Part shown: one piece after another, positions 1 through 6,779 of the stretch
Numbering within the stretch: the stretch's first letter is position 1
How the letters are laid out: every line of letters begins with the position of its first letter
Virus record (IMG/VR): IMGVR_UViG_2693429713_000022
Coordinates: 1-6,779 of that record
Reading direction: 5' to 3' (one strand)
Source of the DNA: a virus
Taxonomy: Duplodnaviria > Heunggongvirae > Uroviricota > Caudoviricetes
DNA: 6,779 bases
Translations under genes and position numbers: made by a program
Notes under the pieces: model-generated
Databases searched by the model: none
What the model saw: the letters and a program-made list of their open reading frames with translations, nothing else
What the model was told of the DNA's origin: nothing

Positions 1-12
1 GGTTTGGGAGAA
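1..12. other. Inner half of a candidate Din-family crossover site (site A); core and outer arm would lie just upstream of the window
   Basis: GGTTTGGGAGAA is the exact reverse complement of the 12-bp arm TTCTCCCAAACC found in sites B and C. Only half the site is visible, so this is provisional. Confidence 0.45.
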
Positions 13-453
13 GCGGCAAAACGAAATGTGGGCAACGGGGAAAACCAAATCCCTGATATGTCTTTCTGGACGGTTACTGGTGGCAATGGAAATTTTGTGA
101 TTCGTCAACCTGACGGGCTAATCATTCAGATGGTTACTGTAAGTATAAGCGGTCCAGTGGCGATGAATGGAATGACTGATAATGCTTATGCCATTACAGG
201 TTCTAATAAGTCTTATATTGCCACAGCCACATTGCCCTTTGTATTTCCTAATAAGGTGCTGGGCGTTATCCCTCTGGTATCAACAACAGCTTATGGTGGT
301 GTATCCAGTAATATTACAGGTTCATACGCGACGGCGGTTTGTTCTTTTGCCGCTGTCAGGGGGAATAATACGATTGTGTTCAAAGTCGACAAACCACTGA
401 ATGCAGCCTTTCCTTCAGATACCAGCGTCTCAGCGTTAATCATTGGACGGTAA
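1..453 (+). CDS. Tail-fibre protein, C-terminal receptor-binding cassette (partial; 5' part of the gene lies upstream of the window); left copy of the inverted repeat
   Basis: Open frame from position 1 (GLGEAAKRNVG...ALIIGR) ending at TAA 451-453, followed 2 nt later by a Tfa-family gene, the usual tail-fibre/chaperone pairing. The same 149 aa are encoded on the minus strand at 2512-2958. Gly/Ser/Thr/Asn-rich composition typical of fibre distal domains. No start codon in the window. Confidence 0.8.
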   Translation, partial: GLGEAAKRNVGNGENQIPDMSFWTVTGGNGNFVIRQPDGLIIQMVTVSISGPVAMNGMTDNAYAITGSNKSYIATATLPFVFPNKVLGVIPLVSTTAYGGVSSNITGSYATAVCSFAAVRGNNTIVFKVDKPLNAAFPSDTSVSALIIGR

Positions 454-2257: not shown

Positions 2258-2509
2258 TTACGTAGGTATGCGAAGGGCAGAGTTTGTTAAGCACACACTC
2301 GACAACGGTGTCGCCCCAGATACGCAGTGCGGAATCACAGGGATCACGCCAATTTCTTTCCCTTCTGGATGCAGCCCAAGAAATTGCTCATATGTTTCTC
2401 TGGTAATTTCAATAACATCATCAGGAAGCGTTCCCGCATCCTCATATTCTGGAAACAATTCTTGCAGATAAAAACTTTTACTTGCGGGTGAAAAGAATAC
2501 TGAGTTCAT
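2258..2509 (-). pseudogene. Truncated Tfa remnant: 54 N-terminal codons from IR-R fused to 29 unrelated codons
   Basis: The first 54 aa are identical to the Tfa gene at 456-617. After the inverted-repeat boundary (2347/2346) the frame continues into unrelated sequence ([29 protein letters not shown]) and stops at 2258-2260, 83 aa total versus 147 aa for the intact copy. Confidence 0.55.
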
Positions 2510-2964
2510 TCTTACCGTCCAATGATTAACGCTGAGACGCTGGTATCTGAAGGAAAGGCTGCATTCAGTGGTTTGTCGACTTTGAACACAATCGTATTAT
2601 TCCCCCTGACAGCGGCAAAAGAACAAACCGCCGTCGCGTATGAACCTGTAATATTACTGGATACACCACCATAAGCTGTTGTTGATACCAGAGGGATAAC
2701 GCCCAGCACCTTATTAGGAAATACAAAGGGCAATGTGGCTGTGGCAATATAAGACTTATTAGAACCTGTAATGGCATAAGCATTATCAGTCATTCCATTC
2801 ATCGCCACTGGACCGCTTATACTTACAGTAACCATCTGAATGATTAGCCCGTCAGGTTGACGAATCACAAAATTTCCATTGCCACCAGTAACCGTCCAGA
2901 AAGACATATCAGGGATTTGGTTTTCCCCGTTGCCCACATTTCGTTTTGCCGCTTCTCCCAAACC
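2347..2964. repeat. Inverted repeat, right copy (IR-R), partner of 1-618
   Basis: See IR-L. The outer end at 2964 is set by the window start (position 1 pairs with 2964) and coincides with the end of the 12-bp arm of crossover site C, so the repeat may end at the recombination site. Confidence 0.9.
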
Positions 2965-3006
2965 AACGTTTATGAAAATGCAGAAATAACGAGCAAATGG
3001 CATCAT
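2512..3006 (-). CDS. Tail-fibre C-terminal cassette, pin-proximal copy; apparently lacks an N-terminal constant part in this orientation (silent or fragment cassette)
   Basis: Encodes the same 149 aa as 1-453 on the minus strand. The ORF extends only 14 codons beyond crossover site C to an ATG at 3004-3006 (MMPFARYFCIFINV...) with no fibre-like N-terminal domain. This resembles the short fibre fragment gene next to pin in e14, as I recall it. Confidence 0.6.
   Translation of the reverse strand: MMPFARYFCIFINVGLGEAAKRNVGNGENQIPDMSFWTVTGGNGNFVIRQPDGLIIQMVTVSISGPVAMNGMTDNAYAITGSNKSYIATATLPFVFPNKVLGVIPLVSTTAYGGVSSNITGSYATAVCSFAAVRGNNTIVFKVDKPLNAAFPSDTSVSALIIGR
2953..2978. other. Candidate Din-family crossover site C, next to the invertase gene
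   Basis: TTCTCCCAAACC-AA-CGTTTATGAAAA: left arm and AA core identical to site B, right arm more degenerate. It lies 55 bp upstream of the invertase start, the position where gix/cix-type sites sit relative to gin/cin. On the minus strand it encodes ...INVGLGE... in the same frame as site B. Confidence 0.6.
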
Positions 3007-3032: not shown

Positions 3033-3587
3033 ATGCTTATTGGCTATGTACGTGTGTCAACAAATGACCAGAACACAGATCTACAACGTAATGCGCTGAA
3101 CTGTGCAGGATGCGAGCTGATTTTTGAAGACAAGATAAGCGGTACAAAGTCCGAAAGGCCGGGACTGAAAAAACTGCTCAGGACATTATCGGCAGGCGAT
3201 ACGCTGGTGGTCTGGAAACTGGACCGACTGGGGCGCAGTATGCGGCATCTTGTCGTGCTGGTGGAGGAGTTGCGCGAACGAGGCATCAACTTTCGTAGTC
3301 TGACGGATTCAATTGATACCAGTACCCCAATGGGGCGCTTTTTCTTTCATGTGATGGGGGCCCTGGCTGAAATGGAACGAGAACTGATTGTTGAACGAAC
3401 AAAAGCTGGACTGGAAGCTGCTCGCGCACAGGGACGAATTGGTGGACGTCGTCCCAAACTTACACCAGAACAATGGGCACAAGCCGGACGATTAATTGCA
3501 TCAGGAGTTCCGCGCCAGAAAGTTGCGATTATCTATGATGTTGGCGTATCGACTTTGTATCAGAGGTTTCCGGCAGGAGATAAATAA
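3033..3587 (+). CDS. pin: Serine DNA invertase of the Pin/Gin/Cin/Hin (Din) family, 184 aa
   Basis: N-terminus MLIGYVRVSTNDQNTDLQRNAL is the hallmark Din-invertase start, with the catalytic serine at residue 9 (codon 3057-3059). The rest is near-collinear with Gin/Cin as I remember them (GDTLVVWKLDRLGRSM, GRFFFHVMGALAEMERELI, and a C-terminal HTH region GVPRQKVAIIYDVGVSTLYQRF). GGGAG ribosome-binding site at 3021-3025, 7 nt before the ATG. The track ORF starts at 2997, but 3033 is the supported start. Family assignment is confident; the pin symbol is by context (e14-like neighbours), not proven orthology. Confidence 0.93.
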   Translation: MLIGYVRVSTNDQNTDLQRNALNCAGCELIFEDKISGTKSERPGLKKLLRTLSAGDTLVVWKLDRLGRSMRHLVVLVEELRERGINFRSLTDSIDTSTPMGRFFFHVMGALAEMERELIVERTKAGLEAARAQGRIGGRRPKLTPEQWAQAGRLIASGVPRQKVAIIYDVGVSTLYQRFPAGDK

Positions 3588-3785
3588 AGACACAGCTCGT
3601 CGAATTCAAGAACGTGTGAGCCAATCTCATGATGATTCATTATTTTCACATAGAGTCAATGACAAAAAACGGCTGCAAGGTAAACCACAACGATGGCTTT
3701 GTTAATTGATAGCGGTTTTGGTACTAAATGATACAAATTAAAATGAATATCCTAGTGAATTACAACAATTTCAGGAGGAAATAGT

Positions 3786-3998
3786 ATGCCAAGAAAAACG
3801 CTAGAAAATTTGGTAAATGTTGCACGTCAGACTCAGGAAATAGCGGATAAGAGAAGCCGTTTTTTCGGGTATCTTGAACAGCATGGCTTGAAGAGGAATG
3901 AGGATAGTGCTCACCTTTTTGCTATGCATTTACGGTTGCAACACAATGAAAGAGATAATCTTGTCCATGAACTGATGTCCGGATTACATCATAAATAG
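3786..3998 (+). CDS. Hypothetical small protein, 70 aa, basic and His-rich; function unknown
   Basis: Strong AGGAGG ribosome-binding site at 3773-3778, 7 nt before ATG 3786. AT-rich. Convergent with the two-gene operon. I recognise no family. Confidence 0.5.
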   Translation: MPRKTLENLVNVARQTQEIADKRSRFFGYLEQHGLKRNEDSAHLFAMHLRLQHNERDNLVHELMSGLHHK

Positions 3999-4032
3999 TG
4001 CATCATTCGAGCAAGAATATTATAAGACAATA

Positions 4033-4055
4033 AACCAGCCAAAAACTGGCTGGTT
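4033..4055. terminator. Candidate bidirectional intrinsic terminator between convergent genes
   Basis: Hairpin AACCAGCC(A)-loop-(T)GGCTGGTT with an 8-9 bp stem, flanked by T-rich sequence on the minus-strand side (TATTGTCTTATAAT) and a TTTTT run 10 nt away on the plus-strand side. Lies between the 70-aa gene stop (3998) and the 114-aa gene stop (4083). U tracts are imperfect. Confidence 0.5.
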
Positions 4056-4082
4056 GAACGTTAACTTTTTGAATTTAATCAA

Positions 4083-4427
4083 TTAACTTTGGTGTATGTC
4101 TTGGTAAGTCTCATCCGTCAGAGCCAATTTCATGCAAATATCATCGTTAAGACTGACAATATCTTCGATCAGTTTATTGATCTCGAAATCGTTAAGTTTT
4201 GATACTGTTGCTTGAACTCGCCCCTCATCGCCAGTGGCATCAAACTTAGTCAGTTCCTTACATAATTCATCGAACCTGCTTTGTAAGGCATTTGGAATAT
4301 CATCGGCTGTTTTAAGATGCCCAAGGCTAAAAACATACGAATTAATCAAGCGTTCTTGAATACTTCCATGGCCCGCAAGAGTAAGTACTGCAGTATGAAA
4401 TTTTTCATGTGCATACTTTAAGGACAT
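4083..4427 (-). CDS. Hypothetical protein, 114 aa, mildly acidic; second gene of the cargo operon
   Basis: GGAGA ribosome-binding site (plus-strand TCTCC 4434-4438) 6 nt before ATG 4425-4427. Lies 51 bp downstream of the 343-aa gene on the same strand. AT-rich. No recognisable motif. Confidence 0.6.
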   Translation of the reverse strand: MSLKYAHEKFHTAVLTLAGHGSIQERLINSYVFSLGHLKTADDIPNALQSRFDELCKELTKFDATGDEGRVQATVSKLNDFEINKLIEDIVSLNDDICMKLALTDETYQDIHQS

Positions 4428-4478
4428 ATCTGGTCTCCGTGACTTATAACCTCAACCGACATAAATGGGGTTAAGTGA

Positions 4479-5510
4479 TTATTCTGAAACAATAGTGTTG
4501 AACTGACCTATAGAAACAGCACCCTTTTCAATTACCTCTAAGTAACTGATTTTAATATGAGAGTTGTTTGACAAAGCGTCAACAATAGCTGTCAACTCAT
4601 CTTGGGTGATAACATCAGCTGAAGCTTTGATTGTGAAGCATTCGTCATTAGAGACCCTAACAACGTTAATATTAATATCCTGATTTGTTGGCCCTGTTCT
4701 GGTTACACCTTTGATGGAAAATATATCAGTTCGTTCTTTACGTTCTCTATCTACAGATTGTCGGCTGTTGTAGGTATTTAGGTCTTGTCGTGTTAGTTTC
4801 TCATTTCCTAAAGTCACGGTTTCGACAGTAGGATCAGCAGCTAATTGCTTCACTAAAGCACTTTTACCTGCTTGTCCGTGACTAGTAACTTTATCGCTAA
4901 TCGCTGATTTCCCATAGATTTTATAATCTAATGTTGCTTCTATGGCTTTGTTTATGCCATCGGATGTGGTTTTTGCAATTTCAACCTGCCGATCAGTTGC
5001 ATGTCTTTCTGTTACGGCATTTTCTGAAATGTAGTGATAACCACATGTGCTGGCCGCGCCAACCATTGTGATTATAACAAGCATTTTCTGCCAGCCGTTC
5101 AGTCCAGACATAGTATCTCGCAAAAAATCAGTTACTGCGTTGATGATCTTGTCAGTGGTGCCTTCCGCATCACTAGAACCTTCGCTAATTTTAAAATTTA
5201 TATCAAGTCGTTGCTTGTCTTCATTAGTCAAGCGTTGAAGATTCTGCGATCCGTATCGTATGGTTGCAAACGCCCGCTGTATCTCCTCGTTGAGCATTGA
5301 CATACCAAACAACATTGCTGATGTAATTGATGAATGATACCGCTCTCCTTTTACATTTATGTCTAAGGATGGCCAGCCTGCAAACTTTACGTTAGGGAAA
5401 ATAAACTCTTTAGAATCAAGCCCCTCTCGGGCTTTCATTTCTTCCAGAAAGTTTAGAAAATCATCTTCACTACGGATCAGAAAATCAATCGAATCCACAG
5501 TAGCTTCCAT
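4479..5510 (-). CDS. Hypothetical protein, 343 aa, with a central hydrophobic (possible membrane) segment; first gene of the cargo operon
   Basis: Long ORF in an AT-rich region. AAGGA ribosome-binding site (plus-strand TCCTT 5518-5522) 7 nt before ATG 5508-5510. Hydrophobic stretch GWQKMLVIITMVGAASTCGYHYI at about residues 139-161 (roughly 5028-5096). No catalytic motif I can name. Confidence 0.75.
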   Translation of the reverse strand: MEATVDSIDFLIRSEDDFLNFLEEMKAREGLDSKEFIFPNVKFAGWPSLDINVKGERYHSSITSAMLFGMSMLNEEIQRAFATIRYGSQNLQRLTNEDKQRLDINFKISEGSSDAEGTTDKIINAVTDFLRDTMSGLNGWQKMLVIITMVGAASTCGYHYISENAVTERHATDRQVEIAKTTSDGINKAIEATLDYKIYGKSAISDKVTSHGQAGKSALVKQLAADPTVETVTLGNEKLTRQDLNTYNSRQSVDRERKERTDIFSIKGVTRTGPTNQDININVVRVSNDECFTIKASADVITQDELTAIVDALSNNSHIKISYLEVIEKGAVSIGQFNTIVSE

Positions 5511-5719: not shown

Positions 5720-6082
5720 TGGTGGAGCTGGCGGGAGTTGAACCCGCGTCCGAAATTCCTACATCCTCGGTACTACATGCTTAGTCAGTCTTTACATTCG
5801 CTTGCCAGCTGCGGACGGACACGCCACTAACAAACTAGCCTGATTAAGTTTTAACGCTTCAACCCCAGGCAGGGCTTCCACGCGATCTCTTTTGGGTTTG
5901 ACCTCTCTTGATCCCCGTCCTAAGAGCGGAGGCTAGGGAGAGAGGGCTCTAAGCAGGTTATTAAGCTGCTAAAGCGTAGTTTTCGTCGTTTGCGACTATT
6001 TTTTGCGGCTTTTTACGAGGCCAACCGCCCCTCGGCATGCACCTTGGGTTTCGCAAATCCCGTCGAATCCAGAATCAGCCCC
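5720..6082 (-). ncRNA. ssrA: tmRNA (SsrA), 363 nt
   Basis: Reverse complement of 6059-6082 is GGGGCTGATTCTGGATTCGACGGG (tmRNA 5' end) and of 5720-5760 ends ...GGGTTCAACTCCCGCCAGCTCCACCA (tRNA-like 3' end with CCA). The tag reading frame GCAAACGACGAAAACTACGCTTTAGCAGCTTAA (ANDENYALAA-stop) is the reverse complement of 5961-5993. Matches the E. coli-type tmRNA as I remember it along its length. Confidence 0.95.
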
Positions 6083-6102: not shown

Positions 6103-6296
6103 CCAGATTTATGAGCGCCATGACCAGCCTCAATGGCGTTATCGTTAAAGATTTAGCACCCATGTAGCCTGATTTTTATTCGATTAAGCAATGGGATGGC
6201 AACATTTGTGTCGGATGTGATAGCCAATAAGATGTTGATTCGCGCCGCCGGAGAGGGAGGCGCGGTGAGGAACTGGTCAATAATTGGAGTGCAGGT

Positions 6297-6779
6297 TTAA
6301 CGGTGGGCGTTTTTCATGATACGTGCTTTATCCACCTGCCATTCGCGTTCTTTGATATCTGAACGTTTATCGTGCTGTTTTTTACCTTTGGCGACGCCGA
6401 TTTTCACTTTGCACCAGGCATTTTTCCAGTACAGGGAGAGCGCCACTACGGTATAGCCTTCTCGATTGACGCGACCGTACAATGAGTCCAGTTCGCGCTG
6501 GTTGAGAAGTAACTTGCGGGTACGGGTAGGATCGCACACCACATGCGTGGAGGCCACGGCCATTGGCGTGATGTTAGCGCCAAACAGAAATGCCTCTCCG
6601 TCACGCAGAAGGACGTAGCTGTCGCTGATATTGGCTTTTCCTGCGCGCAGGGATTTAACCTCCCAGCCTTGCAGGGCAAGTCCCGCTTCGAACTCTTCTT
6701 CGATAAAGTATTCGTGACGGGCGCGCTTGTTAAGCGCGATGGTCGCTGAACCAGGTTTATGTGCTTTTTTCTTCGTCAT
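6297..6779 (-). CDS. smpB: SsrA-binding protein SmpB, 160 aa
   Basis: Full-length [75 protein letters not shown]... with the start codon at the last three bases of the window (6777-6779). Directly upstream of ssrA on the same strand, the canonical smpB-ssrA arrangement. Confidence 0.95.

Follow-up and report, generated by a model that had tools for sequence, protein, structure and literature searches.

The 70-aa ORF at positions 3786-3998 (plus strand, ATG to TAG) of a 6,779-nt stretch of Escherichia coli DNA, here called the window, is best understood as a real protein-coding gene under purifying selection. Its product belongs to a small-protein family that is uncharacterised, unnamed and without a Pfam, PHROG or NCBIfam model. 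Comparison with related loci sets the gene apart from its convergent neighbours and places its homologues at the attachment-site end of prophages. We therefore consider it probable that this is an autonomous moron-type gene, whose small helical product would bind a macromolecule of the host or of the phage when produced from the prophage.

Location of the gene in the prophage

The window covers the right end of a complete ~37 kb lambdoid prophage of E. coli. The tail end is of the Mu/e14 type, with a gene of the ymfQ/gp48 family, stfP and tfaE, followed by an invertible tail-fibre segment with identical inverted copies. Ends of tail-fibre/tail-fibre-assembly genes recur in inverted orientation at 4-453 (plus strand) and 2512-3006 (minus strand), and a second pair of inverted copies lies at 456-~640 (plus) and 2258-2509 (minus), flanking ~2 kb. 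These copies constitute the invertible host-range segment served by the Pin-type serine invertase (3033-3587, plus strand; Pfam Resolvase, 1.5e-51; HTH_7, 3.6e-13; pinE in RefSeq). The integration site is ssrA (complete tmRNA gene at 5720-6082, minus strand; Rfam tmRNA, 295.8 bits; annotated in RefSeq), which marks the attachment junction and is followed by smpB, and the integrase, together with an excisionase gene overlapping its start, occupies the far end of the prophage. Other elements are stacked at ssrA as well: in EC1515 (L043, 1-9400) the prophage has beside it a further integrase accompanied by RloB/AAA ATPase genes, and an AlpA-bearing island of the CP4-57 type, another integrase is found in L002 (9935-12645), and a P4-like satellite in L006 (10439-16213).

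Three genes separate pin from ssrA. The 70-aa ORF starts 198 nt past the invertase gene, and two minus-strand genes converge on it, one of 114 aa (4083-4427) and one of 343 aa (4479-5510; phrog_6191, E 7e-38). An earlier, sequence-only reading of this DNA had called the 70-aa ORF with the same coordinates and the identical translation, and had likewise described the convergence across an intergenic hairpin. RefSeq lists the product as a hypothetical protein, WP_001137529.1; this accession is mentioned in no paper, and a keyword search of the literature returned nothing specific.

A family of three-helix small proteins in Enterobacterales

Near-identical copies of the gene are present in 46 of 5426 complete E. 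coli genomes and, being at least 99% identical throughout, are uninformative on selection. A word-indexed search of 5.8 billion proteins likewise yielded near-identical copies only. A phmmer search of 1.84 billion representatives, by contrast with the word search, retrieved five full-length small homologues (67-76 aa, E 2e-12 to 7e-5) that align end to end at 40-58% identity. Profile searching extended the set to 17 clusters, three of them near-identical and of the window's own type. Family members range from 67 to 76 aa and from 37 to 58% identity and all stem from Enterobacterales, with E. coli/Salmonella, Escherichia sp., Pantoea sesami, Scandinavium and Citrobacter braakii/freundii/europaeus/portucalensis as named sources. 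When the window protein (P0001) and a second member (P0039) were compared by tblastn with 50,697 sequenced phage genomes, no match emerged beyond one marginal hit. The family, known from prophages and their remnants, appears to be carried by temperate phages of Enterobacterales.

Two further candidates were inspected individually. A 152-aa hypothetical protein of the large, virulent phiWec179-group phages reached a tblastn E of 5e-3 and an hhalign probability of 51% over 37 columns only; in Escherichia phage phiWec179 itself (Phapecoctavirus; L029, 2477-2935), the marginal likeness sits at the N-terminus, with the motif R..F..FL...LERNE. A 1959-aa eukaryotic repeat protein (P0043, E 5e-5) was rejected as a repeat-inflated chance match, each repeat contributing ~0-5 bits through residues that are not conserved in the family.

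AlphaFold2 models built from 6 and from 16 sequences agree on the same three helices (residues ~4-33, 39-48 and 53-65; mean pLDDT 80.8 and 78.0, respectively). Conserved positions are mostly hydrophobic residues of the predicted core, joined by R14, Q15, R23, E39, H43 and R56, and family members share a basic N-terminus (MPRK, MRPK or MARSK). Neither a signal peptide nor a membrane segment was recognised on reading the 70-aa sequence. While homology searching did deliver small-protein homologues, as the sequence-only reading had proposed to look for, it brought no significant match to a fold or a named family: the 70-aa ORF and 6-16 family members had no significant match in Pfam, PHROGs, NCBIfam or PADLOC, and for the latter, 16 members gave no consistent match and two isolated weak ones (best E 0.01). 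The best hit of a PDB profile search, a P450 at E 0.14, was regarded as noise, and PHROG 1166 ('anti-sigma factor', E = 0.11) was discarded as a match to one of six members only. A resemblance to the N-terminal core-binding domain of tyrosine recombinases of the Cre/XerD/lambda integrase type was also rejected, as the scores were not significant (Foldseek E of at least 2.8; hhalign below 1% against two phage integrases) and the 70-aa protein has no catalytic domain. The same integrase comparisons, together with an hhalign value of 0.2% against the phage's own excisionase, led us to dismiss descent from an integrase or excisionase.

Most homologues reside at attachment junctions

The homologues occupy a precise genomic niche. 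Of about nine distinct contexts, seven have the gene immediately within the attachment junction of a complete or remnant prophage, and at least five have no other gene between it and attR. Preceding it are diverse tail genes along with common accessory genes such as umuDC, an SRAP-domain gene and dinI, and the carrier phages possess different tail modules (Mu-type baseplate, lambda J-type, tailspike). Attachment-type fragments are found within ~75-350 nt in seven of the roughly nine contexts.

On the upstream side, this fragment is a 47-55 nt piece of the 3' half of tRNA-Pro, located on the opposite strand, 74-93 nt from the ATG and equipped with its own terminator hairpin (L017, 5871-5925; L025-L028, 5876-5925; L037-L039, 6958-7012; L035, 5345-5399; L041, 6879-6926; L024, 2849-2895); in L018, the last 28 nt of ssrA take its place (263-290). 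The arrangement resembles an attachment core whose tRNA 5' half and host flank have given way to the ORF. Identity with tRNA-Pro was confirmed in all 5426 E. coli genomes by a match to the annotated tRNA-Pro together with the hairpin that follows it. At proL, the tRNA-Pro 3' half and terminator of 490 among 5426 complete E. coli genomes show 95-99% identity to the phage-type copy, compared with ~87% in the rest. This split is consistent with prophages that occupy proL and supply the 3' end of the tRNA, as in E. coli strain CX21. The proL prophage of CX21 displays the normal upstream junction, in the order tRNA-Pro, hairpin, dinI, invertase, tail fibres and J; the integrase of this prophage lies across the core from these genes, and a homologue of the ORF is absent.

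A second attachment-type fragment follows within 140-330 nt downstream, on the strand of the ORF. By reading, it would correspond to the 3' part of a leuZ-like tRNA-Leu with its terminator in L017 (~6346-6402), L035 (~5821-5877) and L040 (~7349-7405), and to the last ~165 nt of icd, an e14-type site, in L018 (728-898), L025 (6396-6563), L036 (6540-6707) and L037 (7613-7789, as in L039). The icd-type fragment encodes ...AKLLKCSEFGDAI..NM*. L036 and L037 retain the first 9-14 nt of the leuZ-type core in addition to the icd fragment, which suggests stacked relics of swapped integration modules. L037 and L039 are shared up to ~30 nt past the icd fragment and then continue into host DNA or the integrase of another prophage; the homologue is therefore the last gene before a functional attR. 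L024 and L041 possess the upstream tRNA-Pro fragment only, and in L041 a full-length SRAP-domain gene comes after the homologue, followed by host purB. L020 is devoid of t(m)RNA or icd fragments and only shows TGGGGGCGT repeats, four of them in direct orientation just after the P0041 homologue (6230-6300). Similar GGGGGC(A/G) repeats follow P0042 in L024 (~3420-3457), and the repeats at both loci may be putative arm-type binding sites of an integrase. The window represents a layout variant, with the ORF 1.7 kb from ssrA and without an upstream tRNA fragment. From these mosaics we infer that integration modules were repeatedly swapped at the phage end and left their old cores behind, with the small gene as a long-standing resident.

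Such closeness to attachment sites raises the question of whether the protein assists site-specific recombination as an accessory factor or regulates events at the att site, that is, a small basic DNA-binding protein affecting integration, excision or secondary integration. The near-constant distance to the tRNA-Pro or ssrA core, the position upstream of a leuZ-type or icd-type core and the properties of the protein (70 aa, computed pI 9.4, so that the earlier description as small and basic holds) all speak in its favour. There is also a precedent in TorI of the KplE1/CPS-53 prophage. This recombination directionality factor of 66 aa has its gene beside attR, at the integrase-distal end, where some directionality factors are found; the 70-aa protein resembles it in being small and basic and in the location of its gene at the prophage end near an attachment site. 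Nevertheless, we regard this explanation as unlikely. Proximity to att is equally expected of any cargo gene at a prophage end, and in the window, two genes intervene between the ORF and ssrA. The window phage already has its own excisionase, overlapping the integrase start (phrog_2917, E 7.7e-44), and the hhalign values against this protein and the two integrases stay below 1%. TorI and Xis proteins are winged-helix proteins, whereas the AlphaFold models predict an all-helical family, for which Pfam and PHROG gave no excisionase match of the Xis/AlpA/TorI type. Besides, the third helix, which would have to serve in recognition, appears to carry acidic and hydrophobic residues at its conserved positions. 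A related and slightly less probable version holds that the family is functionally tied to attachment sites as a stand-alone helical DNA-binding module kept at a fixed distance from the recombination core. If true, the module would tune integration or excision, or else protect the site or mark it for integration by further phages, and the tie would account for the stacked tRNA-Pro, ssrA, tRNA-Leu and icd relics that surround the gene in different phages.

The gene is independent of its convergent neighbours

The sequence-only reading had offered three options for the ORF, namely a regulator or an antitoxin-like partner of a convergent two-gene operon, or an independent moron. It is the last that the evidence favours. 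That the ORF regulates the 114-aa and 343-aa genes, or supplies them with an antitoxin or immunity function, would fit with the block of pin, 70-aa ORF, 114-aa gene and 343-aa gene being identical in ten of ten contexts of the E. coli/Salmonella type, including remnants mostly stripped of phage genes. However, this co-occurrence carries no weight because it derives from one nearly clonal DNA block (at least 99% identity). Elsewhere, the fetched homologue loci, which represent about nine distinct contexts not of the window's own type, contain no relative of either neighbour, and conversely, all five fetched loci with a relative of the 343-aa protein lack relatives of the 114-aa and 70-aa proteins. 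The supposed operon is thus not a conserved pair either, with relatives of the 343-aa gene occurring without the 114-aa gene.

A Mangrovibacter prophage (L012) is instructive in this respect, with the order ssrA, 343-aa gene (82% identity), 300-bp spacer and pin. Here, a hairpin and a tRNA-Pro-like fragment replace window positions 3575-4476, and blastn of window 3400-4600 against this locus recovered only the 3' ends of pin (3430-3574) and of the 343-aa gene (4477-4600). The hairpin and the diverged tRNA-Pro-like fragment lie at ~6060-6140 of L012, where the window has the 70-aa ORF and the 114-aa gene. That both genes are missing together could be taken to favour a partnership. Yet the same blastn query against L036 and L040 aligned 3718-3985 (plus strand) at 68% and detected no similarity beyond either end. 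This block, which would be the transferable cassette, comprises ~68 nt of upstream sequence, the Shine-Dalgarno sequence and nearly the whole ORF, and it stops before the hairpin and the 114-aa gene. The ORF hence shows presence and absence among close relatives with sharp homology boundaries, as is expected of a moron. In L004 (8694-9724), the 343-aa gene is split into pieces of 124 and 165 aa, with the 70-aa ORF and the 114-aa gene intact. The homologue in L040 is likewise followed by a 114-aa gene, but its product bears no relation to the 114-aa protein of the window, the equal length being coincidental.

The hairpin common to both sides (4033-4055) might also be read as a link. Its sequence is AACCAGCCA-AAAAC-TGGCTGGTT, with a stem of 9-10 bp, and a 90-nt region around it folds at -19.2 kcal/mol (z = -3.5 relative to shuffles). 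As the sequence-only reading had it, it does lie where the genes converge, between the two stop codons and 35 nt after that of the 70-aa ORF, but it is shared by position only: the T-rich tail is on the minus strand, so the pattern scan identifies a terminator for the 114-aa and 343-aa genes and not for the 70-aa ORF, to which the structure looks like a 3' hairpin at most. The stem (AACCAGCC/GGCTGGTT) is the same as that of the tRNA-Pro terminator copy beside the homologues, where the AACCAGCC...GGCTGGTT hairpins of L017, L035 and L037 match the annotated region downstream of tRNA-Pro in E. coli. The same-stem hairpin is located downstream of the ORF in the window and upstream of it in the homologues.

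Furthermore, the genes are convergent and not co-transcribed, the 114-aa and 343-aa proteins match no known defence model in PADLOC, and no toxin-antitoxin family was matched by the 70-aa ORF. Partnership with the convergent genes is accordingly very improbable. Since the comparative data separate the three genes, the 70-aa ORF is to be seen as an independent cassette, and the 70-aa, 114-aa and 343-aa genes are three separate pieces of cargo. As for the 343-aa protein, a hydrophobic stretch (WQKMLVIITMVGAASTCGY) occupies its centre, and its family is diverse, with identities from 83% to 29%; members occur throughout Enterobacterales, and Pseudoalteromonas and Pseudomonas have more remote ones. 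Its gene adjoins ssrA in E. coli and Mangrovibacter and lies ~2.5 kb from tmRNA-like matches in Pseudoalteromonas.

Evidence for translation and signals for expression

The window contains 51 ORFs of at least 40 aa, and a length of 70 codons alone is not beyond chance; what lifts this ORF above chance is its unique Shine-Dalgarno sequence and, above all, the conservation of the protein in other genomes. The AGGAGG motif that the sequence-only reading had pointed out (3773-3778, plus strand, 7 nt before the ATG) is the only one in the window on either strand, and AGGAGG-N7-ATG has a chance expectation of 0.04 (8/200 shuffles reach one match). Both the ATG and a Shine-Dalgarno sequence are kept in all eight representatives that were read, the latter being purine-rich and 4-8 nt before the ATG even though the flanking DNA has diverged.

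At the protein level, a 67-residue core aligns without gaps across 16 sequences, eight residues of which are invariant (A13, L30, A42, A46, R56, L59, V60 and L63). Over 15 pairwise comparisons, differences at the three codon positions amounted to 402, 362 and 644, the third being highest, and dN/dS was 0.13-0.28 where dS is unsaturated, although the evidence for selection rests on distant relatives whose dS is saturated. Of the reading frames, only that of the 70-aa ORF is open in all six members tested. Real translation, as claimed earlier from the ribosome-binding site, is therefore very likely in view of the conserved frame, start codon and Shine-Dalgarno sequence and the purifying selection. 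These observations leave little room for a spurious or decaying ORF whose conserved DNA would in fact represent attachment-arm sites or a regulatory RNA. One might invoke the attachment-site relics surrounding the gene in relatives, as well as rare truncated variants (P0003, 44 aa; P0061, 62 aa). Against this stand changes that favour the third codon position, a dN/dS far lower than 1 and an alignment that is gap-free at 37-58% amino acid identity versus ~45-65% DNA identity. Rfam contains no RNA family at the ORF or beside its homologues, its only hits elsewhere being tmRNA, cspA thermoregulators and RyhB. We thus give this possibility even less credence than a partnership with the neighbouring genes. 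Least credible of all is a histidine-rich, metal-binding peptide, for although the seven histidines in 70 residues noted previously were counted again and include a C-terminal HH, they do not characterise the family: H43 alone is conserved broadly, H33 and H61 are present in roughly half of the sequences, H48, H53, H68 and H69 are confined to the E. coli sequence P0001 and its 97% variant P0002, other members have ~1-4 histidines, and Cys/His motifs typical of metal sites are absent.

The region ahead of the ORF holds candidate -10 elements (3739-3753, plus strand). According to a hexamer scan, TAAAAT (3739-3744) pairs with TTGGTA (3718-3723) across a 15-nt spacer, and TATCCT (3748-3753) aligns with TATACT of L036 and L040. 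On unscored reading, all eight representatives appear to have a -10-like hexamer (TATAAT, TATACT, TAAAAT or TACAAT) 24-41 nt before the ATG, a weak one in the case of the window, where a stricter consensus scan called no plus-strand promoter upstream of the ORF. These elements may constitute a promoter of the gene's own, and the moron-type reading would have the gene expressed in the lysogen. Because genes for DinI, SRAP and UmuD-like proteins are frequent neighbours, we also looked for LexA boxes upstream of the homologues; the sole CTG-N10-CAG match was at -191 in L018.

Relation to known prophage cargo

According to Hendrix and colleagues, morons of lambdoid prophages are said to be autonomous promoter-gene-terminator units added between or beyond the core genes. 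Examples are bor and lom of lambda and small prophage proteins such as DicB. The 70-aa ORF resembles them in several ways: it is a compact cassette that some related phages carry and others lack, situated beyond the tail-fibre genes at the attachment-site end, furnished with its own Shine-Dalgarno sequence and a promoter-like element, and associated with varied tail types. It differs in that its family is unrelated, in sequence as in fold, to the product of any characterised moron, and in having a terminator on its own strand that departs from the canonical form.

A second parallel is e14 of E. coli K-12, in which the cargo slot between pinE and attR is filled by mcrA. The window prophage ends in a similar way, with a gene of the ymfQ/Mu gp48 family, stfP, tfaE, pinE, accessory genes and the attachment junction, and several homologues sit beside an icd 3' fragment, the e14-type attachment site. 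In contrast to e14, the slot content in the window is unrelated to McrA and the prophage is integrated at ssrA and not at icd. On present evidence, the gene does not amount to a new kind of system, small accessory genes at prophage ends being familiar.

Along the lines of the moron-type reading, a cassette of ~270 bp, made up of a -10-like promoter element, a strong Shine-Dalgarno sequence and the 70-aa ORF, would fill the cargo slot at the attachment-site end, in this prophage between the tail-fibre invertase and ssrA. Its product would be a soluble, mildly basic protein of three helices with a hydrophobic core and a few polar or basic positions. Going by size and predicted fold, it would most likely bind a partner, be it a host or phage protein or a nucleic acid, during expression from the prophage; it is probably neither an enzyme nor a component of the 114-aa and 343-aa genes.

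In summary, what had been an unannotated 'hypothetical protein' is now placed in a small-protein family that is defined by an alignment free of gaps, a confident model of three helices and a precise niche in the genome. The present analysis also corrects the picture of the locus, whose 70-aa, 114-aa and 343-aa genes are no longer to be read as one system. Small prophage proteins expressed in lysogens are often potent modulators of host physiology or phage infection, and a conserved 70-aa gene with a strong ribosome-binding site is for this reason a reasonable candidate for knockout and overexpression screens. Together with this, the attachment-site mosaics around its relatives provide a compact record of the swaps of integration modules among enteric phages.
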